Part shown: in pieces, positions 10,301 through 62,648 of the stretch | How positions within the stretch are numbered: position 1 is the first letter of the stretch | How the letters are laid out: each line of letters begins with the position of its first letter | Virus record (IMG/VR): IMGVR_UViG_3300025410_000009 | DNA from: a virus | Lineage: Duplodnaviria > Caudoviricetes | Direction: 5' to 3' (one strand) | Length of the DNA stretch: 64,000 nt | Notes under the pieces: generated by a model | What the model was told of the DNA's origin: nothing | The model's database searches: none | The model's input: only the letters and a program-made list of their open reading frames with translations | Position numbers and translations under genes: made by a program

Positions 10301-13129
10301 GCTCAAAGCAATCTGGTGCCAGATGTGCATCTACGCCCATCACAGAAAACTGGCTTGGCCATACGTCCTAGACAGACTGTGATACATGATCAATTTGCAG
10401 CGTTAAAAAATGTTGTTCAATATGTAAATGCGGTATTTGCAACCACAACTGCAGCCAGCAAGATACAAAATGTGCAACAATACAGCAATGCCAGTTTCTA
10501 TTTTAAAGATCCCTTACCCAGTGCTGCTGCATACGATTATGTTGCAGCCAATATAACCGAACTTGGGTATGTGCCGCTGGTGGCTGGTACTCGTGTGCTG
10601 GTTGAGTCGGACAGCAATCATGATGATATTTGGACTGTGTATGAAATACAGGATGATTTGTCTTATAAATTGATTTACAATCAATCATATGATACCACTA
10701 AACTTTGGAATTTTGCCACATGGTATGCCACTGACTATGATCCAGCAACCAAAATCACATATGTGGTCAGCACATATGCCGATCTTGAAAAAATAAATAT
10801 TGTTGCCGGTGACATTGTCAAGATTGTAAATGCCGGCAGCAGCGGTTTTGAAATATTAAAATTCATTGATTCATCTACGACCCAGCTGGTTGCAATAGAA
10901 AATGGTACCCTACAACTGAATCGAAATTTATGGGACCTGTCAACCAACAATGTGGGATTAGACAACAGCCCATATGACTCTGTGACGTTTGACTACAACT
11001 TCTCGATTGAAGTTAGAAACATCATGCATGGTCTTGCCAACGATGTCTTGATCGATGATCTAAAAACCAATTACAATCAATTGTTGTTTGTGATAATCAA
11101 CTACATCTTGTCCGAGCAAGTCAATGTGGATTGGATCTTTAAGACCAGTTTTATAAATGTTTTACACAAGATACGTCAATTGATCCAATACCCAAGTTAT
11201 GTCAAAGACAACACCGAGTACTATCTTGATTACATCAACGAAGTTAAACCATATAGAACTCAGGTGCGCGAGTATGTGATCAACTATGACGGCATTGACA
11301 ATGCCTACAGCGGCTTGTCGGACTTTGATTTGCCGGGATACTATGATACTGCATTGGCAGTATATCGCAGCCCAGATGGCACACAACCAGCAACCGACAG
11401 TGCGCTGTTCTTGCAACCACCATGGTCGGCTTGGGCAAACAATTTCTTGTTCTCTATATCAAGCATTGATCTAATCGCAGGCGGTAGTGGCTACACCATT
11501 ACTCCACAAGTTATTATTCTCAGTACCGACAATTCAGGCAGCGGTGCCACTGCCACCTGCACCATAAACAATGCTGGCGCAGTGACCAGTATTACAGTGA
11601 CCAATGGTGGGCAAGGCTATCGTGATGCTCCGTTAATGATAATCAACGGTAACGGTACTGGTGCTCGAGCAGTGGCTCGTATGACCAATGGAAAAATACG
11701 CGGAATCACAACAACATTGAAGTTTGACCGTGTCAGTTATGATACTGCGGTGACCGAATGGTTGCCCGGGCACAATTATGCAGCCGGCAGCAAAGTCAGC
11801 TACTTGCACGAAGGTTATGTTGCTACCGAAGACTTACCAGGCACCGTGACCAGCTATATAACAGCCACAAATGATCAAACTGTGTTTAGAGTGCCCAACG
11901 GCTATTACACCAGCGGTGTTGCAATCAACGGTGTTGCAGTTGGTGGTATACAATCAGTCACAGTTAATGGCACACTGGTCACAGCCAACAACTATACAGC
12001 CACTGACGGAGTATCTGTGGTGTTAACAACACCAACCTATTATGGTGACAATGTGACCATTGTTGCTTACAAAAATGTCAATTCTGCGTTTAATTTTCAT
12101 GTGTTTAGCAAGATCAACAACAGCGATTACACCAGTGCAAACGATCGAATTGCTGCTTTGTACAATCCATTGCCGTCACAGATACCCAAAGAAGTTGATG
12201 CCGATGGTCGCATTGATCTAACTAGATTGATTGACGGTGTGAAATTCACCGGACATAACATAGACAGTGATCTTGTGGTCAATAACGATACCAACTTGGT
12301 GACTTATACATTGTATGACAACAACAGCAACGGCGCTGGCAATATAAATCTAGATGGCGGCTCACTAAATTCAACTGTGCATGCTCCTGAAGAACTAGTT
12401 CCAGGGACCACATACGACAATTTAAACATGCGTGTGTACACCAATTTGAGTAATGGTACTACCGTGGCCTACAGAATAAGTTATGACTCACGTCAGCAAA
12501 CTAGATACAATGTCATTGCAAGAACAAAAACTACATATTTGTTAACAGACTTGAATTGGGACGACACCAGTTTTGAAGTTTCTACCGGATCGGCATTGTC
12601 CATGCCGCAGCCACAAAAATCAATTCCTGGCTTGATATACATCAATGGCGAAGCGATATCATTTTGGAAAATAGTCGGTGGTGTTATCAGTAGAATCACT
12701 CGCGGCGTGGGCGGCACAGGAACTCCTGCAGTACATCTTGCAGGATCTGTGGTAGAAGATGCTGGTAGCACAACAGTGGTACCTGGTACACCGCAAACAC
12801 TTACAACCAAATATACATTTGATCCTGCAGTTGGGGTAGCTACCACCAGCTACACAGTAGCAACCAATTTAAACGAAGTCAAGCATCTTTTGTCGGTCAT
12901 GATCAATATCAACAAATTGCCCATTAATGAATATTATACTGTCAGTATCCATAATGGTCATGCCATGATCACTTTCAGTGATCTTGCCAAACAGGTGATT
13001 CCAGCAGGTACGGTGCTGATGCTAAATTATTACCAGGACCATGTGTGGATCAATTTGGGATCTCATGGCGGCTTGGCCACCAGCACTACCGATCAAGCAG
13101 TATTTTTGAAGAACAACCCATACAATTAA
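1328..13129 (+). CDS. Giant (3933 aa) virion structural protein, baseplate/tail-associated, with FG-GAP beta-propeller and carbohydrate-binding-like modules
   Basis: One uninterrupted ORF rich in T/N/V/G. It has seven FG-x-S-V-x-I...L-x-V-G-A-P-type repeats (about 8000-9450), two W-x4-Y-x2-G-x2-V-x-Y (CBM5/12-like) motifs (about 6758 and 11759) and GGSGY/GGQGY beta-repeats. Structural-gene context. Confidence 0.75.
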   Translation: MPITRTLDFLPGIFRTETNKKFLSATLDQLVSEPEFTRLNGYIGRKFAPTYQAGDSYIAEVNSDRQNYQLEPSVVVKDSSNQITYYSSYTDLINIVSYYGGKTTNHDRLFESEYYSYDGKFDYDKFVNFGQYYWLPNGPDPIAIKSTLVASQETFGVTRNTGTNEFVLSGQPVPNPDITLLRGGLYKFQVSSPGTGFWIQTEPGVAGFKKSAPTVSSRVIAGVTNNGRDNGTIEFSVPASDSQDLYLKMPVVGSIDYAIDVPFAALDNLDWGDVVQNYNGLDGMTISPVNKLVIFLNINGDDAEWTRQDGSIVPANQRRGVWRVHLVDNRFTLQYVRDIPVNSKVYVRSGRTHADIEYYHDIINEFIPVPALTAQLDTLYYQDAADPGMYGRIRIVDEILDAINVTEFILGKPRYTSPSGVVFSNGMLVTFDSNTMPAQYANNTFVVEGVGTGITLTEFSRLVTPEVKQEGETVLQPDYFVCNRGSLDLNAWARGNRWFHSDIIIASAAANGTVPLFDQTARAKRPIIEFETNLQLFNNGRIGKRPVDQIVTSITDAFNQVEHYNKLTVGDVVFNVGDRVLFVNDIDPVVRGQVYVVAYGIKPDPTYQSIYDGTGTGTISVVGTAVTGTDTAFVAELQVGSCLYSPDSGIVIGVVAEIASDTELTLVSAGTATDSAFLYRNPKLQLLVSPDADDSLLEFDTIVATSGSNAGVTYWYNGTVWHVAQQKTAINQAPQFDAYDYNNNSYSTYLSSNFTGTSIFSYGVGSGVTDTVLGFPLAYSNGTGTIADISFVNNFDVDTFQYTVGKSLVKKSINLGYIRKNLDRYNFVKENVWNTVKENTKQYQIISNTFSTTNYFEIDVLPNTAATIPYIKVFVNNVLQDTANYRVTTVESINAVEILTTLAVGDKIDILIYSDSTSTLGYYQIPSNLDYNSENQSLPTITLGQIRNHMTTLAQNSFGLNGAAPGIHNFRDLNIKLQGGDLLQHSAPTIYASLFLIDNQANFVNGVDYARREYTKFKNKFVELATTMSGLDHNNVSASVDQILTTINQVKNNSFPWYYSDMVPYGQYTSTAYTVVTLLSKQYKISAIYDQTLLQSRAVLVYLNNRLLTKDRDYTFDPAKPAIYISDSVELTIGAKLEIREYNTDGNYIPETPTKLGLYPKFLPQIVEDDTYRTTINVIQGHDGSLTPVFGDYRDDFLLELETRIYNNIKANHDIAAVDVRSYVPGRFRTTDYSLAEFSDIIGSAFLKWAGVNSVDYTSNSYFSSSDPFTYNYQSATDKIYNQTLPGYWRGIYRYFYDTDRPHTHPWEMLGFSQMPTWWTDQYGPAPYTSGNLPLWSDLELGIIQAGERAGIDPVYARPGLSKVLPVDDQGNLLPPLGTLTLQFSTGKASQAFAIGDGGPAESAWRRSSEYPYALQQAVALMKPARYFATMYNTNEYYRHPTINQFVTTDTNRRVTPADITLNGEPVNGTVTRANGYVNYVLDYLTSLGISATTKVRAMLDNLSVQLTYKVAGYTDTGYLTVLAEQYSPTSTNASVVIPDQNYNIYLNKGVPTRRVAYSAIIVEKTTTGYSVRGYNTDNPYFIMIPSETAGPSYTITSGTVSAVIYQNFVPITVRVPYGQQFATKQQLVDFLISYQRYLIYQGFVFEDYSSDLGQTQDWALSALEFLGWTLQGWRPGSILVLSPCETKLTINTSFASIDEITNSANNSRVLDTNFNVIRTTELTVMRDFDINQTVIQSVTGRTIAFAELNLVQFEHVLVFDNIDIFGDVIYQPQSGSRQFRLKLIGDKTANWAGALNPPGFIYNSNRVDSWQQGLDYLKGDVVTYKNYYYVATQDIPAETSFTIAYWKLINKTDIKTGLLPNFANNAGRFIDFYDVDATTLNKQFNQYSSGLIGFRPRAYLDDLSVDHNSQIKFYQGYIKDKGTKNAVNALLNAEFNNLSSDVSYYEEWAVRVGEYGAQNTNQLVSMIIDESMVKSNPVGLAILAPGQTDSHYGLINIADRALYDRPLGSAPVRFLTRNPGTNIENDIETAGYVNINDVDATLFDASVSFAGLSASLADIVSGYNIWVAKDINTDWQVYRANETDNVVLSIAYNLDSTAKITTRNPHGFVANDTIVIKQFNSLYDGFYSVSSVLDSWSFSVSVSSTISAALKPKPVTGTGILFQLSSVRFNNPGNIARAVPKHGWKDGDRAWVDRDEQDHWAVYQKSNPWSYTNAVSISHGARTTGGLFGASLRIDPAQRYLIVGQPYGNDYGRVRVFDTTQNYREVSVLDPLITRIGGLGTSVDIANNQLVAGAPGTNYSVGMAVLYQLNDKFSFTAAQAIVNPDGGGGANFGYCVTMSLDAQWLYIGCPGLNAVYTYKFTNVADNNTPDQFSIDAALAGYNLVYNITDDPDALAVYNNNILLVRDRDYATDGHTITLFGGALSSESGNFNLLSEDNDEIVTEATTGAPGFLTVYARPYFKYISKIQGPAGTQFGTSIKTTTNGGTVVIGQPAATVNGLVGAGRVSVYTNNNGTFTLRHVLAEEQPTYAAHFGTSVDITHDNASIIVGAPGYSDLTTSGGAVYRFAVSSQFELIQKLTKPLQTQGENFGYRVRVSPSNNTLLVSSTTGTVETYGTFDAGKTTFDRAVTRTLDLVYGSGAVYIHDYLPNPADSTNPHGDFVFSNEFNAPNMHLGDRFGSDVDISQNTLVISSAYNSEYGANSGQVYHYSNPAGTAGWNKIRSQNPTVDVTSINRVFLYSNQDKSTLAMLDYIDPAKGKLLGIVDQDIDFKSSRDPANYNNGTGTDKTITADYFWGPLHVGLVWWNLDTVRYINYEQADLSYRLNNWGRLFPGSTVSVYEWVESSVPPNQYAKSGAMGTPLYSNNEYFVETTTVDPATGIIVTKYYYWVQGITTVPAGSKRVMSASSLEATIRDPAAQGVPFAAILSDNSIGLFNCQSYLSGTNTVLQIDYDTVLNSNLLHSEFELVQQGNGDSVMPERIINKLVDSISGADAQSNLVPDVHLRPSQKTGLAIRPRQTVIHDQFAALKNVVQYVNAVFATTTAASKIQNVQQYSNASFYFKDPLPSAAAYDYVAANITELGYVPLVAGTRVLVESDSNHDDIWTVYEIQDDLSYKLIYNQSYDTTKLWNFATWYATDYDPATKITYVVSTYADLEKINIVAGDIVKIVNAGSSGFEILKFIDSSTTQLVAIENGTLQLNRNLWDLSTNNVGLDNSPYDSVTFDYNFSIEVRNIMHGLANDVLIDDLKTNYNQLLFVIINYILSEQVNVDWIFKTSFINVLHKIRQLIQYPSYVKDNTEYYLDYINEVKPYRTQVREYVINYDGIDNAYSGLSDFDLPGYYDTALAVYRSPDGTQPATDSALFLQPPWSAWANNFLFSISSIDLIAGGSGYTITPQVIILSTDNSGSGATATCTINNAGAVTSITVTNGGQGYRDAPLMIINGNGTGARAVARMTNGKIRGITTTLKFDRVSYDTAVTEWLPGHNYAAGSKVSYLHEGYVATEDLPGTVTSYITATNDQTVFRVPNGYYTSGVAINGVAVGGIQSVTVNGTLVTANNYTATDGVSVVLTTPTYYGDNVTIVAYKNVNSAFNFHVFSKINNSDYTSANDRIAALYNPLPSQIPKEVDADGRIDLTRLIDGVKFTGHNIDSDLVVNNDTNLVTYTLYDNNSNGAGNINLDGGSLNSTVHAPEELVPGTTYDNLNMRVYTNLSNGTTVAYRISYDSRQQTRYNVIARTKTTYLLTDLNWDDTSFEVSTGSALSMPQPQKSIPGLIYINGEAISFWKIVGGVISRITRGVGGTGTPAVHLAGSVVEDAGSTTVVPGTPQTLTTKYTFDPAVGVATTSYTVATNLNEVKHLLSVMININKLPINEYYTVSIHNGHAMITFSDLAKQVIPAGTVLMLNYYQDHVWINLGSHGGLATSTTDQAVFLKNNPYN

Positions 13130-49693: not shown

Positions 49694-52381
49694 TTAATCC
49701 CATGTAAACAAGCTGTCAAAAGTGGTCTTGATTTCGGTATGGTTGGGAATGTCCCAGTCCAGCACACCCAGCAAGTTTTCTACCTTTTGATCCACAATGC
49801 CAGCTTCCATTTTGTTGTCGTCAAACGGCAATTCTTTGAACCATTGCGGGATGTGACTTTCGTCAGTGGGATAACCCACACTGGTATAACCCATGGGGTT
49901 GTCTCGCAACTTGCACACAATGGTCTTCATGCCATCCACAATGGCCATGCTGTAGTTGTCACCGTGCATGCGACGCAGATTGTTCCAGTTCAGTGCAGCT
50001 CGCACATGTCCGGGCATGTTGGCTTTGCCTGATTTGGCTTCCAGTGCACCGTATTTGGTCAAGTTGTTGACACGTTTGGGTGTGCCCTTCTCCCATGCTG
50101 GGCGATCCTGGAACAGCAATTTAAAGTCGCGAACCTTGTCGTAGATGTGCTCTTTTTCAGCGCCGGTCAAGACATCTAGCAAGATCTCACTTAAAAAGTC
50201 TTGTACCACCTTGGGTGTGTCTGATCGCTTCAAGTCCAAGCCCATGGCCTTGAGTTTGCCTGGCTTGCCGTCTACATCTAGTCGTTTGCCTTCAAGGTCA
50301 TAAATCAAGGCTGCGTAGCGTTTTTTCTTAATAAAAAGACCTTTTGATGCCACCAGTTCTCGACCACCCTTGATCAGGGCACCCATGTCTCTGGGAGCAT
50401 GAAATGCACGTTCCATGAATGCCGGGAAGCTGTTGTTGACCTGTTCGGCAATGTTGTCGTAAAGTTCAACACAGATTTCTCGATTCCATTCCATCTGTCC
50501 GCTTTCAACTTCGTCGCGAATGGCCGGCCATGCACTAAAATACACCGAGTCTGTGTCACCGTAAATGATGGCATCACCCACGTGATTGTACTCGCCAGTG
50601 ACACATTCGTTTACAAATGCATCCATGTGTCTAGCAATCACACGACCAGTCAGTGTGGTACTCTGTCCAATGCGCTTGTCAAAGAATCTGCAATGCGGAT
50701 TAAGAATAGCACCATACAAACTGTTCAAGTTAATCTTTTTAACCAGTTGTCGTTTGTCCCAAAATGCAATTTCTTCGGGTGTGGTTGCTGCTTTCTTTTT
50801 GGCCTGCATTTCCTTACGTTCAGCATACCAGCGTTCCAGCAAGCCGGGCACAATGCCCTTTTGATCGTATTTGAAAATGGTACCGTTGGCACTCAGGATC
50901 CAGGGTTGATTGCTGTTAAACACCATGTTCCAAACATCAGCGGCACTGACCACATTACTGCTGCCATCCTCCCAGTCTATGGTAATCTCGGTACCGATTT
51001 CGCCATTCATGACTGCGGTATACTCCAAGCTGCCAAATGTATCTTCCCATGCATCAGTAAACGAACTGCCTTTCACAGTCTTGCCGTTTACCACTTGATC
51101 AGCCATGCGAGCGGCCAGGTAGTGATCAGTCAGTGTGGGTCGCAATTGGCCAACGATGGTTTCACAGGCCATGTTAAGGGCGCGAATAGCCGAGGGATAG
51201 AGCGAGTTGATGTCAATGGCTCCGATGTATTCGTGGATGCCTTTTTTGGGATAAGCAACATAGGCACCTGCTGCTTGCGAGTCTTCACGGTCATCTTTTC
51301 TACTCCTGTTTTGAACAATTAAACCTTGTTGATGTGCTTCGTTAATGATGGCCTGTTCGGTAACAGCCACAGCGCCCATTGTGGTGGGCAATAGCACAGT
51401 ATTGTCGTGCGCCAATTCGTTGGCTAGATCCAAGAAGCGTAACTTCTTGTCAAATTTGGCCAACAGCATGGTGTCTTGTCGGTTATAGTCAATAAATGTA
51501 GGAAAGTCCTTGTTGTACAGTTGATCTAGAGTACCTTCATATTGAGTCTTGCGCTCGCCTAATTCGTATTCGGCAATGGCATCCAAACTGTAACTATGAC
51601 GTTCTTCATAGGTGTATTTGCGATACAGTTGCATGTAGTCTAGGTGCACACGACCCAACAAGTCGAACGTGATGTTTTCAGCACCAAAGCGTTCAAATGT
51701 GCGTTGTTTGGGCAGTTGGTTCCACAAACACAATCTACGTGTATCATCACGGCTCAATACTTTGGTGATACGCATGACTGTGTAAGGAATATCGAAGCCT
51801 TCACTGTTCCAACCACTAAGGATATCGGCGTCATCGATCAGGTTCAAAAACGTGTCCAGTAGATCTTCTTCGCGATCAAACAGGAAACAGTTGTCGTATC
51901 TATCGGCAATTTCCTGTGCAGTCTCCCAAGAATAACTGCGTGGCGGAACCACTAGTGTGACCAACTTGTCCAACCAGTCTAGATATACTGTAATGGCAGT
52001 GATGGCATTGAAGGGATCTTCGGGCTTGCTGTATCCACGCACCGGATCAAAGTCAACTTCAATGTCGAAAAATGCCGTTTGCAGTCGCGGTGAATTGGCG
52101 CCTAGATAATTTTCTTCCAGGCAACGGAATACCGGATTGATGTCGCTTTCCCAGAGTCTGCGATCGCCATGGTTTCTAAGTTCTTTTTGAAACTCTTTGC
52201 CGTTGCGTGTGCTGAATCTGCCTACAGTGGTTCCGTAGATGGTACGGAACTTGCCACGTGGATCATCGTAATAGAACACATAGTTAGCTGGGTATTCTCG
52301 ATATACCCTTTGACCATCAACTCGCTCCACAATGTGAATACGATCTTTGGCCTTGTCAAAAAGAGCGTCTACATAACTCAT
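49694..52381 (-). CDS. polB: Family B DNA polymerase (T4 gp43-like)
   Basis: ExoI FDIEV, ExoII GWNSEGFDIPY, ExoIII YNRQD, motif A DINSLYPS, motif B KINLNSLYG and motif C YGDTDS. Confidence 0.97.
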   Translation of the reverse strand: MSYVDALFDKAKDRIHIVERVDGQRVYREYPANYVFYYDDPRGKFRTIYGTTVGRFSTRNGKEFQKELRNHGDRRLWESDINPVFRCLEENYLGANSPRLQTAFFDIEVDFDPVRGYSKPEDPFNAITAITVYLDWLDKLVTLVVPPRSYSWETAQEIADRYDNCFLFDREEDLLDTFLNLIDDADILSGWNSEGFDIPYTVMRITKVLSRDDTRRLCLWNQLPKQRTFERFGAENITFDLLGRVHLDYMQLYRKYTYEERHSYSLDAIAEYELGERKTQYEGTLDQLYNKDFPTFIDYNRQDTMLLAKFDKKLRFLDLANELAHDNTVLLPTTMGAVAVTEQAIINEAHQQGLIVQNRSRKDDREDSQAAGAYVAYPKKGIHEYIGAIDINSLYPSAIRALNMACETIVGQLRPTLTDHYLAARMADQVVNGKTVKGSSFTDAWEDTFGSLEYTAVMNGEIGTEITIDWEDGSSNVVSAADVWNMVFNSNQPWILSANGTIFKYDQKGIVPGLLERWYAERKEMQAKKKAATTPEEIAFWDKRQLVKKINLNSLYGAILNPHCRFFDKRIGQSTTLTGRVIARHMDAFVNECVTGEYNHVGDAIIYGDTDSVYFSAWPAIRDEVESGQMEWNREICVELYDNIAEQVNNSFPAFMERAFHAPRDMGALIKGGRELVASKGLFIKKKRYAALIYDLEGKRLDVDGKPGKLKAMGLDLKRSDTPKVVQDFLSEILLDVLTGAEKEHIYDKVRDFKLLFQDRPAWEKGTPKRVNNLTKYGALEAKSGKANMPGHVRAALNWNNLRRMHGDNYSMAIVDGMKTIVCKLRDNPMGYTSVGYPTDESHIPQWFKELPFDDNKMEAGIVDQKVENLLGVLDWDIPNHTEIKTTFDSLFTWD

Positions 52382-53578: not shown

Positions 53579-53905
53579 TTAAACGCTGAAACTGGATCCG
53601 CAACCGCATGTGGTTTGAGCATTGGGATTGTTGATGACAAATCTAGAACCCATGATTTCCTCCACATAGTCCACTGTGGCGCCTTGTAGGTATTGCATAC
53701 TCATGGCATCTACTAATATGGTGCAACCGTGTTGCTCAATCACGTAATCGTCTTCGTTGACATCGCTATCAAAAGTAAATCCATAACTGAAACCACTGCA
53801 ACCACCACCTTGCACAAAAGTACGCAATTTCAATGCTGGATCATTTTCTTCAGCTAGCAAATCATTAATTTTTTCACCAGCTGCTTCAGTTAGTATTAGG
53901 TTCAT
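53579..53905 (-). CDS. erpA: A-type Fe-S carrier (ErpA/IscA)
   Basis: [23 protein letters not shown] and [12 protein letters not shown]. Confidence 0.93.
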
Positions 53906-53920
53906 AATATTACTTACTCT

Positions 53921-54919
53921 CTAGTGCGGCAGTCCTAATTTTTTAGCTCGAGCTGGACTGGTGTTGACATGTAATGTTGCATGTGGTACTTGGCCGTTCT
54001 TGCCAACCGCAACCAGTTTACCAGGGTCAGCACCAATGCCATAGTTGATGTCGGGCACAGTTTCATCTAGCGATTTTTCGGCGGCTGGTACATAAGCTGG
54101 TATTGCAGTCATACCGCGCATGCTGGCTGCCAGTGCTCGATGATTACCATCAATGATATATCCATCGGCATCTACCACAATGGGTTTATTTTTAATATCA
54201 TGTGTGGGAATTGCATTAACATGCGATCTGTCAATGTCTAGTACACGATCGTACGGATCTTCTGGTTCGTCTTCACTTGCGGGATCAGGTATATGCAACT
54301 GAGTTAGCGGAACTGTGCGAAGTTCCCAGTGAGGGTGAGCCACCACTAGGCTTTTTAAGAAACCACCGCCTTGCTGGTCACTGGGGTGTATACGTTTAAC
54401 ATATTTCCAAACTTCGGCAGCAGTGAACAATTGTTGCGGTTGTTGGTCTTCGCCAATCTTGTCGTATGCTCTACGGTCAGTGAGATGAAACACCATGCCA
54501 TCAACTGGATCTTTTTTGCTGTACAACTCCCAATTGGGCAACAAACGCTTAATCATCTTGGCATATAATTCAATACGACTATCTTCTTTGGCATTGAATG
54601 TGATTTCTTCTACTTTGTCGATGCCGTATTCTTTTAAGAATGCACGGATAATATCTACTGCGGTTGATAACACTTGTGCAGAATTACCTGTACCAGTCTT
54701 TCCAAACAAATCCAAGTCAGCAGGATCGTTTTCATGATCTCTTAATAAGCGAAATTGTATTTCCCACTTTTTGGGATCGCTACCTGTAAAGGCTTGCCAA
54801 AGATATTCTCTGTTGCCTACCTTAAAAAACGCAGAGGCTTCATCATCGCTGCGACGTGCCCACTCCCAGTTTGTTTTACCAGGTTGAAATACTTCGGCAA
54901 TAAATTCACGTGCTCTCAT
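53921..54919 (-). CDS. Modular putative head-packaged protein: unknown domain + ParB/Srx-like domain
   Basis: N-terminus MRAREFIAE. C-terminal PIVVDADGYIIDGNHRALAASMRG (ParB-like). The N-terminal domain is paralogous to a domain in 54916..56871. Confidence 0.65.
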   Translation of the reverse strand: MRAREFIAEVFQPGKTNWEWARRSDDEASAFFKVGNREYLWQAFTGSDPKKWEIQFRLLRDHENDPADLDLFGKTGTGNSAQVLSTAVDIIRAFLKEYGIDKVEEITFNAKEDSRIELYAKMIKRLLPNWELYSKKDPVDGMVFHLTDRRAYDKIGEDQQPQQLFTAAEVWKYVKRIHPSDQQGGGFLKSLVVAHPHWELRTVPLTQLHIPDPASEDEPEDPYDRVLDIDRSHVNAIPTHDIKNKPIVVDADGYIIDGNHRALAASMRGMTAIPAYVPAAEKSLDETVPDINYGIGADPGKLVAVGKNGQVPHATLHVNTSPARAKKLGLPH

Positions 54920-56871
54920 TTTTTATTGGCCTTTGCTCGTCCTGCCTTCATGTTGGCCAACCAGTGCGCCATACGTGCTTTTTCACCTGTGCTGTGTTTA
55001 GCAGTATTTCTTAAACTACTGACTGACGCTTTGGTATTTACACCCATGCGTTTGGCTAGACCCTTGCGTCCAGGATTTTTGCCATCAGCAAAGTTTTCCG
55101 CTACACTCTGTTCCCATACATTTTTACCAGGCTTGTGTTTGTCCCAAAAGCCGGCACCAGCATCAGTCTGTTGACCACTACGACGTATCTTATAACCTTT
55201 GCTCTTTACGTAGTCATACATTGTTTTAGCAATGCCTTGACCTTGATAGCGTTCTTCAACTTCTAGGTCTTGTGGTAGTAGATATTCACCATCAAATGCA
55301 AATAACACATGACCCAACTCACGACCATCGTTACTGGCAACGACATATAGTACTTGGTTATCGTAGTCGTCATCGTCCACATACTCATCATCTTTTTGTA
55401 TTTCCATAGAGATATCTATGCCATTGAAGTTTTCTGAATCTTCTTTTACTTTTTGTTCATTGCGTGTTAGCTTATATCCTGTTTGTTCAGGATAATCTAT
55501 TTTTTTTAAGTTGTAGCCTAACTGTGTAGCATATCTTTGAACTAATCTATCATATAGTTTTGTTCTGCTGCCAGTGGGATCTTCTTCTTTTACTGCGGAG
55601 AAAAATAGAGTATTGGGTTTTTTCTTTTTAATAAATTTACTAATAGCATTTAATACTGTGGCAAATACTCGTTGAGCATCACCTTCTCCGGTGACCGATT
55701 GACTGTTGCTTCTATAAAATTCAACACCCCAATCATTCTCTGACATGTCAGCAAGATTAAACATGATGCTTAGAGGAGTACCGTCTGGTAATTTAGCCAA
55801 TGCATCAACATCGCCGTAATCACTCTTTTCCCATTTAATCGGATAAGGTTTATCAAATGCTTCTTGCAATGAGTCCTCGTCCAAGTTAAATGCTTTCAAG
55901 TTCTTTTCAATTTGTCCAGGACGAACATCTTTTGTAAGACTCATCGAGTAGCGTGGATCGCGAGCCTGTGCCTTGGTGGCAATGACTCCAGATGCTTCTT
56001 GTACGCCATTGATGATCTTGTCCCATTTGGCCTGTAGGGCATTCTTCAAATCCACTGTGGACTTGATACGATTGGCCTGCATGTATTTTATAATTTCTAC
56101 TACACTAGCACGGTCGCTGGAATTGGGTTTACGCCCATTGCTTAGATCTACAGCCAAGTTGTTGTCCTCGTTGGGGCGGCTGTAGTATCTTATATTTTTC
56201 AACAAGCGTTGTGCACGATCACTAAGGTGTTGCACATTGTTCTTGGTCAGCAATTCAATCCAGGGTTTGACATAGTCAGTGGGCTTGCGCGAGTATCCGG
56301 CTGGTGTTGCACCCTTGAGTACATCTTGTGCTTGGCTGAGACTCTTGGCATGACGTGTGTCCAACAAGCGCCAAGCTGCTTCGTCGGTGTATAAAAAGAT
56401 TGGAAAGCCTTGCTGTTTGGCTGACAAGATCAGTTGGCGAGTTTCGGGGCTGCGATATTCATGCTGTTCTTTTAACAACACATGTATGGATTCAATTGCT
56501 TTGTTGGGTATAGTGGGTTCGGTGCTAAACACACGATCTTCGCTCTCTCTAGAACGTGTGCCATCGCTGTGTAACCAAGCACGTTCCCAGTAGTCAATGG
56601 GTTTAACCACATAGTTGTGATTGAACCAATCACCATTCAACTTGAACATGACACCGCTGGATCCCACAAAGCGATGATAGTCACCAGTGACCGATCTAGT
56701 CAAACTCAAAAAGAATGGACGACCTTTGGGTGCATACTGCTCTTCGCTGCGGTTGCCCACAACACTGGCCAATTCAAAGTTACCCGATTTAAGTATTTTT
56801 AATGCAGCTGGGATGGTGGTATAATGAAATAGTACGCTACTGGCACGTTCAAATAAATCGTGTACAAACAT
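54916..56871 (-). CDS. Polyvalent protein: ADP-ribosyltransferase-like + unknown domain + GNAT + basic C-terminal module
   Basis: LFHYT...FLSLTRS...RESEDR (ART-fold H/S/ExE order). GNAT motif A VEERYQGQGIAKTMY. Linkers VQE/A, LQE/A, VKE/D and VAE/N. Confidence 0.6.
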   Translation of the reverse strand: MFVHDLFERASSVLFHYTTIPAALKILKSGNFELASVVGNRSEEQYAPKGRPFFLSLTRSVTGDYHRFVGSSGVMFKLNGDWFNHNYVVKPIDYWERAWLHSDGTRSRESEDRVFSTEPTIPNKAIESIHVLLKEQHEYRSPETRQLILSAKQQGFPIFLYTDEAAWRLLDTRHAKSLSQAQDVLKGATPAGYSRKPTDYVKPWIELLTKNNVQHLSDRAQRLLKNIRYYSRPNEDNNLAVDLSNGRKPNSSDRASVVEIIKYMQANRIKSTVDLKNALQAKWDKIINGVQEASGVIATKAQARDPRYSMSLTKDVRPGQIEKNLKAFNLDEDSLQEAFDKPYPIKWEKSDYGDVDALAKLPDGTPLSIMFNLADMSENDWGVEFYRSNSQSVTGEGDAQRVFATVLNAISKFIKKKKPNTLFFSAVKEEDPTGSRTKLYDRLVQRYATQLGYNLKKIDYPEQTGYKLTRNEQKVKEDSENFNGIDISMEIQKDDEYVDDDDYDNQVLYVVASNDGRELGHVLFAFDGEYLLPQDLEVEERYQGQGIAKTMYDYVKSKGYKIRRSGQQTDAGAGFWDKHKPGKNVWEQSVAENFADGKNPGRKGLAKRMGVNTKASVSSLRNTAKHSTGEKARMAHWLANMKAGRAKANKK

Positions 56872-56880
56872 GGCCAACCT

Positions 56881-57315
56881 TTATTTTAGGCTGGCCTTGA
56901 GCATCCATCCATGTTTGCGATGTGCATCCATGCGTTCAGCCAGGAAGTTGCTGAAACCGTGCTCGCCGGCAGCTTCGGCCAAATCATAAATCATTTTAAG
57001 CACACGCAACATTTTTTCATTGTCGGCCAGTAATTCTGCAATCATGCCCACTTGATCAGGAACTGCAGTTTCGTCTTCGATTGTGGTCAGCATGCTGAAT
57101 CTAGTGTAGCTGGCAGGAACAAATGCTCCCAGTGCACGAATTTTTTCAGCAAAATCGTCGATGCTGTTGTAGACTTCGTCATATATGACTTCTAGTAGTT
57201 TGTGGTACTCGTAGAAGTCGGGTCCTGTGATGTTCCAGTGGAAATTGTGTGCCTTTAGATAAAAACTAAAAGTACTGGCAAATCCAATTTTGGCAGCTTT
57301 TTGTAATTCTTCCAT
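56881..57315 (-). CDS. dps: Dps / ferritin-like DNA-protecting protein
   Basis: KAHNFHWNITGPDF...H..LE..Y......D.FAEKIRALG and H.KH.WMLKA. Confidence 0.93.
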   Translation of the reverse strand: MEELQKAAKIGFASTFSFYLKAHNFHWNITGPDFYEYHKLLEVIYDEVYNSIDDFAEKIRALGAFVPASYTRFSMLTTIEDETAVPDQVGMIAELLADNEKMLRVLKMIYDLAEAAGEHGFSNFLAERMDAHRKHGWMLKASLK

Positions 57316-57320
57316 ATCGA

Positions 57321-57326
57321 TATTTA
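57321..57326 (-). promoter_or_regulatory. Late promoter core TAAATA for dps
   Basis: TAAATA-N5-ATG(57315). Confidence 0.6.
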
Positions 57327-57333
57327 TTCCGGC

Positions 57334-60300
57334 TTACCAAGCACGGCAACTCCAGTAGTTGGCTTTCCATCTTGGTCCGGGATTCTCACAGTGATGTCTA
57401 GCTCTAAAACTTTTTCTATGCTTGGGCAAATGTTTCTTGATGGTCATGTTTTTGTCGCCAAAGTTGACTTTGACAATTTTGCCGTTGGGCTTTTTGACAT
57501 ATACCTTGCTCTTTTTAACATCGCCCTTCATGGGCTTGCCCAGTGGCACTTTGCGTCCATGGTATTCGGCTTCGGTCAGTTCAACACCGTTGTCGGTCAG
57601 CATGTAGGTTGCGGTGTGATCAAATTCTAGCAAGACGCCGTCTTCGTAAGTTTCTAGTACCACGGTTTCAATTTCTTGATCGCCACATTCGATAATGAAG
57701 CCATCGCCCACTTGAATGCTTTCATTGGGCACACAGTTACGGACTTGTCCACCGTTCTTGCCTTTCTTGGTACCGGCAGCATGATGTCCGGGCCAGCATC
57801 GAGTATAACCATTGCTGTCTTTTTCGCCCTTGCGTATCTCGTTGATATTGCCGTGTGTTTGGCACATGCCGCAGTCGGGGCAGGTCATTTCCATTTCAAC
57901 ACTTTCGTTGTGTTTTTTCTTGCCGGCACAGTGAGCTCGTTGACTAAAGCCTTTTGGATGACTGCAATTGATACTGCGTTTGTATTTTTCACTCCAGGCT
58001 TCGCTCATGGGGTGATTCTCATCGCCCAAGAAAGTATCAGCCAGCATCTTGCACACCTTGACAATGTCTTGGTTGCTGGTTTCTTCCACTGTGAAACCAA
58101 AATCATCGTTGGCTTGTGTGGGATCCATGTAGCCACAGTAGACTTTCTTTACTGGACTGGCATCTATTAAATCAGTGCAACTGCCTTGATAGCGATCAGC
58201 CATGGCGCTATCGCAAGGGCTCAATGTTGTGATTATAATACTGCCTTCGGGAATCTCGCCATAACGGTCTTGGTATGCATTGATGGCATTGCGTTCAGCA
58301 TGACTCCACTTGCCGTCAACATTGGTGCTGGTGCGTGCTACCATACGGTGCTCGGGATCCAACACACAGGCAGCGACCATGCCAAATCGTTCTGAGTCAC
58401 GCTGTTGACCCTTTATGACAAGATCACCCAGTTTGACCAAATAACCATCTAGGTGTTTGCGATCGTGGATTTTAGAATCTTCTGAGCCTTCCGCCACACC
58501 TTGCTCAGGAGCATCCATCCAACTTTTTGTTAATTTAATTTGTGACAACGGTATGCGTTTCTTATCAGCAAGTTTCATTGCGTGACTTCTTGCCTCGTCC
58601 TCAGATGAGAAAATCTCTGGCTTATACTTGGTGTCATTGAGGATTTTACCGTTGACCCGAATATACCAATTGCCTCCAGTGCCCTCCGCCACACCTTGCT
58701 CGTTAATTCTTAATTGTTTCTTTGTGTAGGCGATATTACTATCAAAACTTTTTTGACCTTTTTCTTCTGTGTGTTTAGTTATATCTGAATGAATTTGTTT
58801 TCCACCAGCATAAACTCTTACTTGATATCCCCATGGTGTCTTATGTAGTTCATGTGTGTATGGTCCTATTGTTTCTGAGCGAATAACAGATTCTTTTAGT
58901 GAGCCTTCCGCCACACCTTTTTGTTTGTCCCACTCTTTGTCGGTCTTTACATTATATTCTTTTCCACCTGGGCCAATATCACTAACTCTGGCGCCAATTG
59001 GTTTGTTAGTTTTAACTACTGCAGGATTTCTAAATGCACCAGTTGGGGCTCGACGACCACCTTTTTCCCAACTTACTTCTTGATCGCCAAACATGCCGTT
59101 GCCTTCCGCCACACCTTGTCCTTCCTGTAATCCCGGAATAGGATGTAATCCTTTTGGAATTTGACCAGTCCAATGTTGTGATCCTGGTTTTGCTGGCAAA
59201 TCTCGTATGGCATTATCTTCTGCTAAATCACATAGTTTAGTATGATGCAAGAATATAGTGCTACCGCAATCGTAACAAGGATAGTTATCGGTTGGATCTT
59301 CTCCGTCATCGCCCATCGAGAACTCATTCAAAGAGCCTTCCGCCACACCTTTGTCTAATTCCCATATAGTTCTTAGACTACTGCCGCCATGGTCACTGAG
59401 TAATTCATCGATCATTTCGCTTACATGACTTTCTAATTTACCTTGTGCTTCTAGTCCAGCTCGTTCACCTTTGGCTATATAGATGCTGGCAACTTTCTTT
59501 GCATTGGCAAAATCTTTAGAGTCGTAACCCAACTCGTCATTTTCCGCTTCATATTCAGGTATGTATTTTAATATCATTTGACCAATGGCCGGACCTGGAT
59601 CTGCTTTTGCATCTTTGCCTTGTGCAATGTTAGTGATTTGATTTAGATCTTCAATTTGATTTATATTGCCATTTGCGCCCATACCTTGCCATACATTAGT
59701 TTGATACCCTGGCAGGCCAGTAGCCTGAAGACTGCGGTTCATTTCAGAAAAATATTTGTTGATTGCGGCCACGGTTTTAACTATCATAGCAGCCAGTTGT
59801 TTTTGATTGTGAGTGGTAAATTCTTTATTGGTATCAAAATACACATCGGTATAGCCTTGACCTTGTGCGGGCTCGACCAAATCCCAACCGTATTTTTGAC
59901 CAATGACTGTTAGTTGTTGTTCAATTCGATCAGGGGTAAATTTTAAGTATTTTAAGTCTTTTAACAACTGTCCAGGATCGTCAGTGGTGGCAGGCAAAGC
60001 TCGGCCATTTACTGTAGCACCACTTATCTTTTTAGATGGCTTCTCACTGGCATAACTGACTGCAACATATCCACTGACAGGATCGGGAGTGGTCTTTTGA
60101 ATGGCTCCCATCATCTTTTGGAACTTGGGATCATCGGTTGCGGCCTCCGCCACACCTTCACTTTTAGGTTTCTGATGATGCTTCTTCATGTTGATGGCAA
60201 TGGCGGCTTGCTGCGCTGCATTGGCAGCTTCTGAAACTTTAGGCACCAATCTAACAGTGACATCGCCATTGGGGTGACGGTGTGTTTTTTCAACCGAATA

Positions 60301-60993
60301 GCCCATCTTTTTCAATGCTGTTATCTGTTTGGCCACGTACGGACTTTTGCCAGTGACAACTTTGACTCCGTCTGTGGCAGCTTCGGAGACACTTTCTGTG
60401 TATGGTGACAGTGCTTGTTTGGCTCTAAAGTTACCGGGTTGTGATGCCAACCAAAGACCTAGGTCGCGCTTTTCAAAGTCGGTCAATCTACCACCGCTGT
60501 TGAACTTGTTTAACAGCACTTGGAAGTAGGGATTTTGTATACCTTTTTGTCTACGTGCAATTTCCAAACGATCAGCATAGGCGTCACGTGGTACAGGTTT
60601 AACTGGAGGTTTTTTATTGGTCATGAAACCCAGCACACCTTCATCAACATCAGACTCACCGCGAGCAATTAGTCTTTTTAATTCTTGCATTTGTTTGTCA
60701 ATGCTGTGATTTTGACTCCATACACTATGGTCGTCGCTGTATTGATAATTTTTATCAAAGCCAAGCTCTAATTGTGCTAGTTTTTGTTTGGCAGCAGCAA
60801 CTTGTTCTGCACTTGGTTTAGGCACCGGTGCATTTGCTGCTGCTTGACGTTGTGCCAGCTGTGCTTCGCGATCGGCCTTTAATTCAGCCCAAGTACGTGA
60901 CTTGCCTGAATAGCCTTTTGCACGTAAAATTGCCGCAAAATCGTCTTCAAGACTTTCCGACATACTTTGTTGGAATAAGTTATATAAGTTCAT
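57334..60993 (-). CDS. 1219-aa modular polyprotein with GVAEG linkers, Zn-deaminase domain and small basic/Cys modules
   Basis: Six GVAE(G/A) linkers. Deaminase HAE...TLSPC...C. Modules WSEKYKRSINCSHPKGFSQRAHC, CPDCGMC and CWPGH...NCVPNE, and C-terminal VKVNFGD...RKSFRARH.C...YWSCRAW. Confidence 0.8.
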   Translation of the reverse strand: MNLYNLFQQSMSESLEDDFAAILRAKGYSGKSRTWAELKADREAQLAQRQAAANAPVPKPSAEQVAAAKQKLAQLELGFDKNYQYSDDHSVWSQNHSIDKQMQELKRLIARGESDVDEGVLGFMTNKKPPVKPVPRDAYADRLEIARRQKGIQNPYFQVLLNKFNSGGRLTDFEKRDLGLWLASQPGNFRAKQALSPYTESVSEAATDGVKVVTGKSPYVAKQITALKKMGYSVEKTHRHPNGDVTVRLVPKVSEAANAAQQAAIAINMKKHHQKPKSEGVAEAATDDPKFQKMMGAIQKTTPDPVSGYVAVSYASEKPSKKISGATVNGRALPATTDDPGQLLKDLKYLKFTPDRIEQQLTVIGQKYGWDLVEPAQGQGYTDVYFDTNKEFTTHNQKQLAAMIVKTVAAINKYFSEMNRSLQATGLPGYQTNVWQGMGANGNINQIEDLNQITNIAQGKDAKADPGPAIGQMILKYIPEYEAENDELGYDSKDFANAKKVASIYIAKGERAGLEAQGKLESHVSEMIDELLSDHGGSSLRTIWELDKGVAEGSLNEFSMGDDGEDPTDNYPCYDCGSTIFLHHTKLCDLAEDNAIRDLPAKPGSQHWTGQIPKGLHPIPGLQEGQGVAEGNGMFGDQEVSWEKGGRRAPTGAFRNPAVVKTNKPIGARVSDIGPGGKEYNVKTDKEWDKQKGVAEGSLKESVIRSETIGPYTHELHKTPWGYQVRVYAGGKQIHSDITKHTEEKGQKSFDSNIAYTKKQLRINEQGVAEGTGGNWYIRVNGKILNDTKYKPEIFSSEDEARSHAMKLADKKRIPLSQIKLTKSWMDAPEQGVAEGSEDSKIHDRKHLDGYLVKLGDLVIKGQQRDSERFGMVAACVLDPEHRMVARTSTNVDGKWSHAERNAINAYQDRYGEIPEGSIIITTLSPCDSAMADRYQGSCTDLIDASPVKKVYCGYMDPTQANDDFGFTVEETSNQDIVKVCKMLADTFLGDENHPMSEAWSEKYKRSINCSHPKGFSQRAHCAGKKKHNESVEMEMTCPDCGMCQTHGNINEIRKGEKDSNGYTRCWPGHHAAGTKKGKNGGQVRNCVPNESIQVGDGFIIECGDQEIETVVLETYEDGVLLEFDHTATYMLTDNGVELTEAEYHGRKVPLGKPMKGDVKKSKVYVKKPNGKIVKVNFGDKNMTIKKHLPKHRKSFRARHHCENPGPRWKANYWSCRAW
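58484..60157 (-). repeat. Six dispersed in-frame direct repeats, core TCCGCCACACCT on + (GGT GTG GCG GA on -; encodes G-V-A-E)
   Basis: Cores start at + positions 58490, 58685, 58907, 59105, 59339 and 60146. Spacings are 195, 222, 198, 234 and 807 nt, all multiples of 3. Codons are identical in every copy. Confidence 0.92.
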
Positions 60994-61634
60994 TGTATTG
61001 TGGCCAGTTGTTGTCTTAGAGTATTCAATGCTTTGTTGTAAGCATTAATTTGATCTTGTATGGCTTTACGACGATCGGCTTTTTGTTGTTGAGCATCTGC
61101 AGCATTGGCAGCTGGTGTTGTATCAGTGGTTCCTGCTGCTGGTGGTGTTGTACCAGGTGCGGCTGGTGCACCGGGCAATGCCATACCAGTTACATCATCT
61201 TCAGATACATTTTTAGCAAACTGTGCCATATGGCGTAGGTGTGCATTTTTGCTATGGCTGGCTTTTTCCAATTTACCTTTAGGGATTTTTTCGCCCTGTG
61301 CCACGTGTAGTGCTTTGTGCAAGTCACCTTTGTTGGCTGGATTGACAGCTCGTTGAATCCATTTGTCAGTCTCTTCAACTTTTTCTTTTTCTTTTTCTTC
61401 TTTTTCCTTGGCTTGGATATCTTTCATGTCTTGATATCGCTTGGCCAATTTATCTTCAAGGTTGATTTCTTCGCCCACCAAACGATCATGGAATGGATGT
61501 TGTTTACCACGACTGACTGCTCGGTCAGTGCCGCGTACTTGGTCGCCGGGCTTTTGCTCGGGTTCACCAGCAAATTTAATTTTGTTACTTTCCATCAAGG
61601 TCAGTAGTTTGATCATGTCGCTGTTGTGACTCAT
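60990..61634 (-). CDS. Modular hypothetical protein (basic KWIQ...HKALHV...EKIP module; Ala/Pro/Thr linker)
   Basis: 214-aa ORF with LME/S, VGE/E, VEE/T and VSE/D linkers. Confidence 0.65.
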   Translation of the reverse strand: MSHNSDMIKLLTLMESNKIKFAGEPEQKPGDQVRGTDRAVSRGKQHPFHDRLVGEEINLEDKLAKRYQDMKDIQAKEKEEKEKEKVEETDKWIQRAVNPANKGDLHKALHVAQGEKIPKGKLEKASHSKNAHLRHMAQFAKNVSEDDVTGMALPGAPAAPGTTPPAAGTTDTTPAANAADAQQQKADRRKAIQDQINAYNKALNTLRQQLATIQ

Positions 61635-61993
61635 TTTGCGGTCCTTTTAATTATTTTTTTCTTGCCAAGCAAATTTTGTGGTGGGGCAGCAGCAATATTT
61701 ACACTACTGGTAATGCCACCGTCGGCATCTTCATGTATTGCACCAGCTGATTTAATTTCATATGCCAACCACTCACGCACAGTACGCAAGTAATCATCAG
61801 CCAAGGTAATTTTTTCGGCAGCCCATGCATCAAGGCCTTTTGCAGCATCTAGCTCTTTTAATAACTTGTGCAGTTGAATGGCATTGTTGGCAGCGTTATA
61901 ACATTCTTCACGTGCCATGTGTATTTGTTCACCAGTTACAGTTTTCTTAGCTACTACAACAGGATCTTCTTTAATGAAATCAGACTTTTTCAT
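61631..61993 (-). CDS. Hypothetical late protein
   Basis: Starts MKKSDFIKE, downstream of a full TATAAATA. Confidence 0.65.
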   Translation of the reverse strand: MKKSDFIKEDPVVVAKKTVTGEQIHMAREECYNAANNAIQLHKLLKELDAAKGLDAWAAEKITLADDYLRTVREWLAYEIKSAGAIHEDADGGITSSVNIAAAPPQNLLGKKKIIKRTAK

Positions 61994-62012
61994 GATATCT
62001 CTCTATGTATAA

Positions 62013-62020
62013 TATTTATA
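62013..62020 (-). promoter_or_regulatory. Full T4 late promoter TATAAATA
   Basis: Exact T4 consensus upstream of the 61993-57334 gene run. Confidence 0.75.
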
Positions 62021-62648
62021 TGTTATTATTTGATAACTTGTGTTGCATGATATGTAGCACAGCATCATTGAATCTACCAAACAAATCAGTCACTATTTTC
62101 TTTTGTGTTTCGGGATTGCTGCTAGCAAATAGTGCACGAATTTCAGTAGCACTCTGCATGGGTTTGCCTAATACAGTGAAGTCTACTGTGGGCACAGTTT
62201 TGATATAGGCATGATGCTCAAAGGTGTTCATGTCATTGGGATTGCGTGGCATGGGTTGGAAGTAGGCTGGCGTGCCATCTTTTTTGGTCCACGAGGCAAA
62301 GCGCGGATCTTCGGCCATGTCTTTTTCGCTGACTGCAAAAATCAATCGTGTTGTAGCAGGATCATATCGGCTGACCAATTCTGGTGCTCGATATGGTTGA
62401 TTGGTTTCGATCACACGATCTAGGTGTACACCAGTCAAGGCCATGAACTGTGCCTTGTCGCTAAAGCTAAAAGGACTCTTGGGTGGATCGATTTTGTTGC
62501 TGGTGGCAACAAACACATGGTCGCGACCGTATGTGCGTACTAGGCCATCATAGACTGCTTTGTGACCCTTGTGCCATGGCTGAAAGCGTCCGGGATAAAC
62601 TACCAGGACGCTTTCTTGTACAGATTCAAATAATTCAGCAATTAACAT
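62016..62648 (-). CDS. HxGH nucleotidyltransferase (NMNAT/cytidylyltransferase-like)
   Basis: VVYPGRFQPWHKGH and C-terminal SATEIR (SxT motif). N-terminus MLIAELFE. Confidence 0.8.
   Translation of the reverse strand: MLIAELFESVQESVLVVYPGRFQPWHKGHKAVYDGLVRTYGRDHVFVATSNKIDPPKSPFSFSDKAQFMALTGVHLDRVIETNQPYRAPELVSRYDPATTRLIFAVSEKDMAEDPRFASWTKKDGTPAYFQPMPRNPNDMNTFEHHAYIKTVPTVDFTVLGKPMQSATEIRALFASSNPETQKKIVTDLFGRFNDAVLHIMQHKLSNNNI

Follow-up and report, generated by a model that had tools for sequence, protein, structure and literature searches.

Candidate head-cargo polyproteins encoded by a gene cluster of an uncultured jumbo phage of the T4 superfamily

Why do six nearly consecutive phage genes, whose products are built of unrelated modules, all begin with a short peptide ending in hydrophobic-x-Glu, and why does a similar motif recur inside the proteins, between one module and the next? 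This question is raised by positions 53921-62648 (minus strand) of a 64,000-nucleotide stretch of the IMG/VR virus record IMGVR_UViG_3300025410_000009 (hereafter, the window), which forms one end of a 239-kb metagenome contig (ENA ERZ27272004, k141_144698) and derives from an uncultured jumbo myovirus of the T4 superfamily. Our analysis suggests that the six proteins are probably precursors of head cargo, which would be targeted to the capsid, cut in the prohead by a protease of the Peptidase_S77 (T4 gp21) family and ejected into the host. Packaging, cleavage and injection are inferred throughout, the cleavage step from the motif, the comparison with other proteins and the relatives of this phage.

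Leaders and cleavage-type sites at module junctions

The cluster consists of six leader genes and a dps gene, as follows (aa, amino acids; a slash after Glu marks the putative cut).

62016..62648, minus strand: 210-aa NMNAT-like nucleotidyltransferase; leader MLIAELFE/S at 62625-62648
61631..61993, minus strand: 120-aa protein; leader MKKSDFIKE/D at 61967-61993
60990..61634, minus strand: 214-aa protein; leader MSHNSDMIKLLTLME/S at 61590-61634; internal NVSE/D site
57334..60993, minus strand: 1219-aa polyprotein of ~13 modules; leader MNLYNLFQQSMSE/S at 60955-60993
56881..57315, minus strand: Dps/ferritin-like gene without leader (PF00210, E=9e-20)
54916..56871, minus strand: 651-aa polyprotein; leader MFVHDLFE/R at 56848-56871
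53921..54919, minus strand: 332-aa protein; leader MRAREFIAE/V at 54893-54919

The preliminary description of this DNA had reported the six genes, their N-termini and dps as the sole interruption, and the list of open reading frames (ORFs) agrees on all of these points. The 651-aa gene most plausibly starts with the ATG at 56871 (MFVHDLFE) and not with an upstream TTG. The dps product, which NCBIfam Dps models match below their cut-offs, is probably not cargo.

Hydrophobic-x-E is present within the first 16 residues of all six cluster proteins, compared with 10 of the 55 other ORFs in the window, and a stricter leader pattern is found in four of the six and four of the 55, respectively. The loose motif gives false positives, as shown by the neighbouring IscA-like gene, whose MNLILTE start is normal for its family. 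A likeness to the capsid-targeting sequence (CTS) of T4 had been pointed out earlier, and it is borne out by the T4 genome record, in which IPII and IPIII start with MKTYQEFIAE/A. The last five of these residues (EFIAE) are shared by the leader of the 332-aa protein, and the N-terminus of T4 Alt (MELITELFDE) resembles MLIAELFES of the 210-aa protein and MFVHDLFER of the 651-aa protein. In the CTS of T4 IPIII, residues 4 and 7 act in targeting and residues 8 and 10 in processing (PMC9026906); the leader residues aligned to positions 7, 8 and 10 (F, I and E) are the conserved ones. Leaders of the MRAxEF[IL]xE type are carried by 70% of the 112 Met-starting database relatives of the 651-aa protein and stand before many unrelated modules, and the homologue of the 120-aa protein in a related contig (G005) begins with MKSYDFLTE/G and is fused to further modules. 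A complete leader copy, MRAKEFITE/A, also occurs inside a database polyprotein (P0179, residues ~450-470), directly before a DUF6934 module, and looks like the result of a recent fusion of two leader-bearing genes.

Behind the leaders, the three longer proteins contain the following sites and modules (ART, ADP-ribosyltransferase).

1219-aa protein, sites: ending in Glu 204, 255, 283, 552, 630, 696, 770, 835, 998, 1030, 1091 and 1141
59338..60144, minus strand: 269-aa module, residues 284-552, between GVAE/A and GVAE/G
58000..58488, minus strand: cytidine/dCMP-deaminase-like zinc module, residues 836-998, between GVAE/G and PMSE/A
57904..57999, minus strand: small basic WSxKYKxSINCS module, residues 999-1030
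57337..57570, minus strand: basic C-terminal module, residues 1142-1219, net charge +18, starting after VELTE/A (phrog_7595)
651-aa protein, sites: VQE292, LQE337, VKE477 and VAE592
651-aa protein, order: leader, ART-like module, 45-aa peptide, DUF6934, GNAT, basic 59-aa peptide
55996..56847, minus strand: predicted ART-fold module, DarT/Tpt1-like, then a helical extension, residues 9-292
55441-55860, minus strand: DUF6934 module, residues 338-477 (PF22028, E=7e-8)
55096-55440, minus strand: GNAT acetyltransferase module, residues 478-592 (PF00583 above cut-off; PF13508, E=7e-6)
332-aa protein, sites: AAE281 and LDE286, followed by a 46-aa basic C-terminal tail
54425-54892, minus strand: DUF6934-like module of the 332-aa protein
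~54077-54358, minus strand: ParB-like module of the 332-aa protein (phrog_620, E=4.8e-6; phrog_1033, E=2e-4)

The separators of the 1219-aa protein are MSE/S, VSE/A (twice), GVAE/A, GVAE/G (five times), MSE/A and sites of the NE/S and LTE/A types. The cluster, with 2,748 aa, has 12 sites of the specific class [VM][AS]E[AGSN], compared with two in the 16,899 aa encoded elsewhere in the window, an enrichment of ~36-fold, and GVAE occurs six times in the cluster and not at all elsewhere in the window. For this class, the linkers that had been noticed between unrelated modules are thus real and non-random.

Module borders were defined independently, by comparison with other proteins. In the 119 listed mosaic homologues of the 1219-aa protein, BLAST segments start within 8 residues of a proposed site in 60% of cases (~15% expected), and comparison of this kind supports each of LQE, VKE, VAE, VSE, MSE, LTE and LDE as a border. 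Four unrelated modules served as anchors, namely WSxKYK, DUF6934 (FDQPY), GNAT (ENFNG) and the ART-like module (VLFHYT). In the 189 non-redundant junctions upstream of them, P1 is Glu in all but one (188; background, 6.8%), P3 is V, I, L, M or F in ~90% (background, 22%) and P2 varies. Each anchor occurs in two positions, right behind a leader and behind an internal site, and starts at the same residue in either; for example, the WSxKYKxSINCS module is preceded by x-x-E-x in all 73 non-redundant contexts, mostly with a hydrophobic P3, and stands directly behind a 9-aa leader in three proteins. On this sequence evidence, every comparatively defined module junction appears to carry a motif of the T4 gp21 type. 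The generic [VLIM]-x-E motif is just 1.7-fold enriched in the cluster (21.8 versus 12.7 per 1,000 aa), and this partly because the Glu content of the cluster is higher.

The comparison further showed that the modules are, at the level of sequence, independent units, joined in any order by related phages. Matches to the 1219-aa protein number at least 404 among large database proteins, and the 119 listed relatives each cover just 6-26% of it, at 40-94% identity, sharing single modules; the 1,922 database proteins that match the 651-aa protein are likewise mosaic. The remaining parts of these mosaic homologues include NUDIX, lysozyme, peptidoglycan-binding, PARP, nucleotidyltransferase and chitinase-like domains, among others. 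In the closest large relative, whose family-B DNA polymerase (PolB) is 76% identical to that of the window, the same locus is found, again next to the genes for ClpB and DnaJ. One 903-aa protein there unites the NMNAT-like, WSxKYK and deaminase modules, and the GNAT, DUF6934, ParB-like region and basic C-terminal peptide are reordered in a 504-aa protein. The 903-aa polyprotein of this syntenic locus (L024 8654-20675) ends in an HExxH zincin-like module, reminiscent of the peptidase domain in polyvalent proteins. No cultured phage with most of these modules was found by megablast or tblastn. Against cultured phages, the cluster as a whole gave no megablast match and the 214- and 332-aa proteins gave no tblastn match. 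Neither the 120-aa protein (Pfam/NCBIfam, PHROGs) nor the 214-aa protein matched any family.

These proteins might instead be uncleaved multidomain 'polyvalent' proteins, in which the linkers are flexible or recombination joints and the N-terminal peptides serve some other purpose or reflect a start preference. Polyvalent proteins of phages and plasmids can have 2-15 effector domains, and some of them enter the host without processing, the N4 virion RNA polymerase being one example (PMC5512222); a linker conserved at the DNA level (see below) and a leader absent from some relatives would also suit such proteins. However, the order and combination of modules are free even among close relatives, which argues against functional coupling, and an invariant P1 Glu, a hydrophobic P3 and a variable P2 fit protease subsites, not a flexible linker. 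Moreover, leader and linker are interchangeable before the same module, and many of the predicted pieces are short, at 28-80 residues, with several strongly basic peptides among them. We consider this explanation unlikely.

The protease and its counterparts in related and cultured phages

The PolB encoded by the window (49694-52381) is 52% identical to the enzyme of Sinorhizobium phage Phosso and 43% identical to the enzymes of jumbo coliphages of the 121Q group, and IMG/VR contigs of 157-367 kb encode PolB proteins 60-76% identical to it. Peptidase_S77 (hereafter, S77) is encoded by four of the five large related contigs in this identity range, the fifth being 45% complete. It was not found in five smaller related contigs, which are 12-49% complete and hence uninformative. 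The S77 family as a whole has >8,000 close homologues in metagenomes. In the related contigs, the S77 gene sits between the gene for an acidic core-like protein and a gp22-like scaffold gene, and the gp22-like scaffold protein itself contains LVAE/G and FVAE/S. The gp22-like scaffolds of relatives (L080 2109-3209, L079 250-1350) end in RRLAGL or KRLAGL. In the complete relative G001, SLLAE/S of the major capsid protein aligns with FLTE/A of T4 gp23. T4 gp23 loses a propeptide of 65 residues (PMC9026906), which places its cut exactly at the FLTE/A that is aligned with SLLAE/S.

Cultured phages offer a further comparison, because stand-alone homologues of the basic C-terminal module were detected in marine isolates by tblastn. 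In Pelagibacter podophage HTVC111P and Roseobacter phage CRP-901, the homologue starts with MAKYKG or MATYKG, exactly where a cut at VELTE/AEYHGRK would leave the basic module of the window; no S77 was found in the complete genomes of these two phages. The homologue of phage C48C1, in turn, has the leader MKKFKQYIDE and the site LELTE/AEYQGKK. A 373-aa protein of cyanophage P-TIM68 has the leader MMKSFIDFSE and contains a WSxKYK-homologous module after RMNE/GWSDKYK, and Alishewanella phage vB_AspM_Slicko01 has eight tandem genes with the leader MKIxxLYESxLxE (L109 354-6024). At least four of these eight Slicko01 genes have an ART-like H-x-T start. The genomes of C48C1, P-TIM68 and Slicko01 all encode S77. 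The presence of leaders is therefore in keeping with that of S77 in complete cultured genomes, in a small sample of three versus two, and this too speaks against uncleaved proteins.

On these grounds, we propose the following course of events. The leader of 8-15 residues, as an equivalent of the T4 CTS, would bring the precursor into the prohead's scaffolding core, where the activated gp21-type (Peptidase_S77) protease would cut after Glu in (V/L/I/M)-x-E, removing the leader and severing every linker. In this way, one targeting signal could deliver a fixed-ratio set of free modules, comprising DarT-like ADP-ribosyltransferase, GNAT, ParB-like, deaminase and NMNAT-like enzymes, DUF6934 and small basic peptides. 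The pieces would stay with the packaged DNA, enter the next host alongside it, like T4 Alt and IPI-III, and might act before any phage gene is expressed. Head-packaged polyproteins had already been put forward in the preliminary description, and the leaders, the junction motifs, the S77 of the relatives and the homologues with mature-type starts agree with that proposal, but its late promoters proved only partly right (see below).

Cleavage could also take place in the cytoplasm, by the phage protease acting outside proheads or by another Glu-specific protease, and release enzymes that, instead of being injected, work late in the cell that produces them. The metabolism of that cell could draw on NMNAT-like, deaminase, GNAT, Dps and IscA-like functions, and the cluster adjoins replication and chaperone genes. 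T4 gp21, however, acts on proteins that are already in the prohead (PMC9026906), and the leaders match the CTS of T4, which has been shown to act in encapsidation. In addition, the most plainly metabolic products, Dps and the IscA-like protein, are those without a leader. Cytoplasmic cleavage thus seems improbable to us.

The QGVAEG linker at the DNA level

Six copies of one linker are present in the gene for the 1219-aa protein.

58483..58502, minus strand: QGVAEG linker copy, AAGGTGTGGCGGARGG on the coding strand (repeat family D2)
58678-58697, 58900-58919, 59098-59117, 59332-59351 and 60139-60158: the other five QGVAEG copies

All six GVAE linkers of the window use the codons GGT GTG GCG GA(A/G) and lie inside a repeat of 16-20 nt. 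Among 88 non-redundant GVAE junctions from 76 related IMG/VR loci, 65 have the codons GGTGTGGCGGAA, compared with an expectation of ~0.5%, and two of these codons are minor ones in the relatives (GTG accounts for 15% of Val and GCG for 8% of Ala). VAE sites that lack the preceding Gly mostly use GTA GCA. The conserved unit is 18 nt long (CAAGGTGTGGCGGAAGGC, CAA GGT GTG GCG GAA GGC) and encodes QGVAEG. In the complete 367-kb relative G001, the GVAE linker is used in one protein only, which indicates that its heavy use is lineage-specific within the clade.

Because identity at silent sites is not explained by a protease site alone, repeated in-frame recombination or gene conversion is the most economical explanation, and the QGVAEG linker is most likely also an in-frame recombination joint for module exchange. 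Recombination at the linker would explain the shuffling of modules as well. The earlier interpretation had not included this conservation at the DNA level, which adds a recombination role to it. Two other functions were considered and rejected. An internal ribosome-binding or start signal is not supported, because no start codon was seen by eye at a fixed distance and AAGGTG is too near the internal GTG; rare-codon pausing alone fails to explain the use of GTG while the equally rare GTC is never used.

Taken further, the same observations could mean that the junction is mainly a cassette-shuffling element or microhomology at the DNA level, with the peptide incidental and its likeness to a gp21 site coincidental. 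This would account for the identical GGTGTGGCGGAA codons in 65 of the 88 junctions and for the use of other codons at VAE sites without Gly, and short conserved sequences known as PeSLs are described as mediating modular shuffling in T4-like phages (PMC4122927). Most junctions, however, are not QGVAEG but varied V/L/I-x-E sites in ordinary codons that keep the P1 Glu, and the N-terminal leaders share the end of the motif without any DNA repeat. The two roles are also compatible, and a mere coincidence of the peptide with a gp21 site has little probability in our judgement. The wider picture, that of a large and abundant clade of uncultured jumbo T4-like phages with programmable cargo, in which one address peptide is followed by interchangeable cassettes and an 18-nt linker doubles as protease site and recombination joint, is put forward tentatively, with somewhat more doubt than belief.

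Predicted cargo, its delivery and known systems

The preliminary description had assigned deaminase, GNAT and nucleotidyltransferase activities to the cluster, and these assignments are supported by Pfam and NCBIfam. The deaminase module matches PF00383 above the curated cut-off (E=4.8e-9). The 210-aa protein (PF01467, E=1.4e-5; phrog_395, cytidyltransferase) is an (H/T)xGH nucleotidyltransferase closest to NMN adenylyltransferases, although the NCBIfam NMNAT models match it below their cut-offs. DUF6934 was found twice by Pfam. For the ART-like call, the support comes from the fold: the N-terminal module of the 651-aa protein, in its AlphaFold2 model (pLDDT 87.6), has the predicted ART fold, with DarT (E 1.9e-4, probability 1.0) and Tpt1 as the best Foldseek matches and a weak DarT/PARP lead in the ESM Atlas. 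The His of FHYT together with E101 and E103 is invariant among 28 homologues of this module, and these are candidate catalytic residues. The ParB-like call is backed by PHROGs and by the ESM Atlas (ParB_N clusters at 0.91, TM ~0.5), and DGNHR is invariant in the alignment, but Pfam was negative. Sequence searches of solved structures gave nothing useful for either the ART-like or the ParB-like module. The 269-aa module, present in 20 of the matches listed, was modelled with a pLDDT of 73; it gave no convincing fold match in the PDB or BFVD, the best being cyclase/palm-like (E 2.5e-3, TM ~0.3), and no match in the ESM Atlas. A role of these domains in host takeover or anti-defence is suggested only by the kinds of domains present.

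Several points weigh against head cargo that is cut in the prohead. The evidence for S77 comes from related contigs. The cluster adjoins replication genes rather than head genes, and the window contains a single canonical late promoter. Some database polyproteins start at the NMNAT module, without a leader. The conserved x-x-E could be part of the fold of the individual modules or a remnant of ancestral leaders that outlasted gene fusion, and the silent-site conservation of the linker points to a constraint other than a protease site.

The closest known system is that of the CTS-bearing internal proteins of T4 and Alt. IPI, IPII, IPIII and Alt likewise have a leader of ~10 residues ending in hydrophobic-x-Glu and unrelated cargo behind one shared leader. 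The cargo, known in T4 and predicted here, includes an ADP-ribosyltransferase in both systems, the cargo genes turn over fast, and related genomes encode a gp21-type protease. In contrast, each T4 cargo protein is a single unit that is cut once, at the N-terminus, and Alt is cut at the C-terminus as well, whereas the precursors described here have up to ~13 unrelated modules with a site at every junction and are shuffled among phages. Furthermore, there is no sequence homology to the T4 internal proteins, and the predicted ART is DarT/Tpt1-like, T4 Alt not being among its fold matches.

The cleavage motif of phiKZ is S/A/G-x-E. The proteases of phiKZ, 201phi2-1 and SPN3US (gp175, gp245) are diverged gp21-like enzymes, and several cuts per head protein are possible (PMC10052503). 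The SPN3US protease also cuts after Glu in a three-residue motif, but this motif is A-x-E, unlike the junctions described here with their hydrophobic P3, and its cuts, except that of the protease itself, remove or fragment N-terminal propeptides and free no separate folded enzymes (PMC10052503). No phiKZ or SPN3US homologues of the cluster proteins were found by tblastn, and modular shuffling is not described in these phages.

The polyvalent proteins of Iyer et al. (2017) are similar in combining many unrelated conflict-type domains, including ART and ParB-like ones, and in their predicted delivery with the DNA, as set out in passages of PMC5512222. At least two unrelated effector-type domains per polypeptide are also found in the 651-aa (ART-like, DUF6934 and GNAT), 1219-aa (deaminase plus ~12 others) and 332-aa (DUF6934 and ParB-like) proteins. 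However, the processing proposed in those passages is autoproteolytic, by an embedded zincin-like peptidase domain (PMC5512222), whereas the cluster proteins of the window gave no peptidase family match in Pfam/NCBIfam or PHROGs, and the searched passages of PMC5512222 contain no CTS-like leader or prohead-protease junction sites. In the passages of PMC4122927 on PeSL shuffling, short conserved nucleotide sequences likewise flank variable units and are proposed to exchange them by recombination, but PeSLs are described there as intergenic promoter-terminator motifs that move whole genes, whereas the in-frame 18-mer would move protein modules. By analogy only, the precursors resemble the polyproteins of picornaviruses and retroviruses, in which one product is cut at short conserved sites into many proteins; here, however, the products would be virion cargo of a double-stranded DNA phage, cut by a head-maturation protease into accessory, interchangeable modules. 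Full-text literature searches found no description of cargo polyproteins with a prohead-protease site at every junction.

Proteins injected by phages precede phage gene expression and form the first line against host defences, and T4 IPI and Alt are well-studied cases. If the proposed scheme is true, environmental jumbo phages inject enzyme sets that are made from single precursors and freely reshuffled, the set predicted here including an ADP-ribosyltransferase, an acetyltransferase, a deaminase, an NAD-salvage-type transferase and a ParB-like nuclease. In the wider picture given above, the cargo system would be a protein-level counterpart of the integron for injected anti-host and anti-defence factors. 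The scheme would also exemplify how modules are swapped in frame at a short conserved sequence. It would provide a large catalogue of candidate injected effectors that can be searched by sequence, as anything between a CTS-like leader and V/L/I-x-E sites in an S77 phage, and a natural model for packing several proteins into capsids of the T4 type.

As to transcription, the following boxes were identified in the cluster.

62013..62020, minus strand: TATAAATA, the sole exact T4-type late promoter box in the window, ~20 nt upstream of the 120-aa gene
57321-57327: ATAAATA, upstream of dps

A TAAATA is also present upstream of the 210-aa gene. ATGA overlaps couple the translation of the 214-, 1219- and 332-aa genes to that of their upstream neighbours, and the 214-aa gene has such overlaps on both sides. 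The cluster would thus comprise about three transcription units with late-like promoters. The claim of six late-promoter genes was overstated, in that one exact and two partial boxes are present and the remaining genes are coupled.

An IscA/HesB-like gene for Fe-S assembly (53579-53905) lies just after the cluster. Together with dps inside the cluster, this gene would point to iron handling by a jumbo phage. Upstream of the cluster, just past the end of the window, are genes for a DnaJ-like protein and a ClpB-like AAA+ disaggregase (L001 3371-6522), and the same pair is present in the relative G005. At the other end, an ORF of 3,933 aa on the plus strand (window positions 1328-13129) is followed by several 280-410-aa ORFs whose N-termini resemble one another (MPYVIRKTNGT or MAYNIQLSNGT), all of which probably encode fibre proteins.

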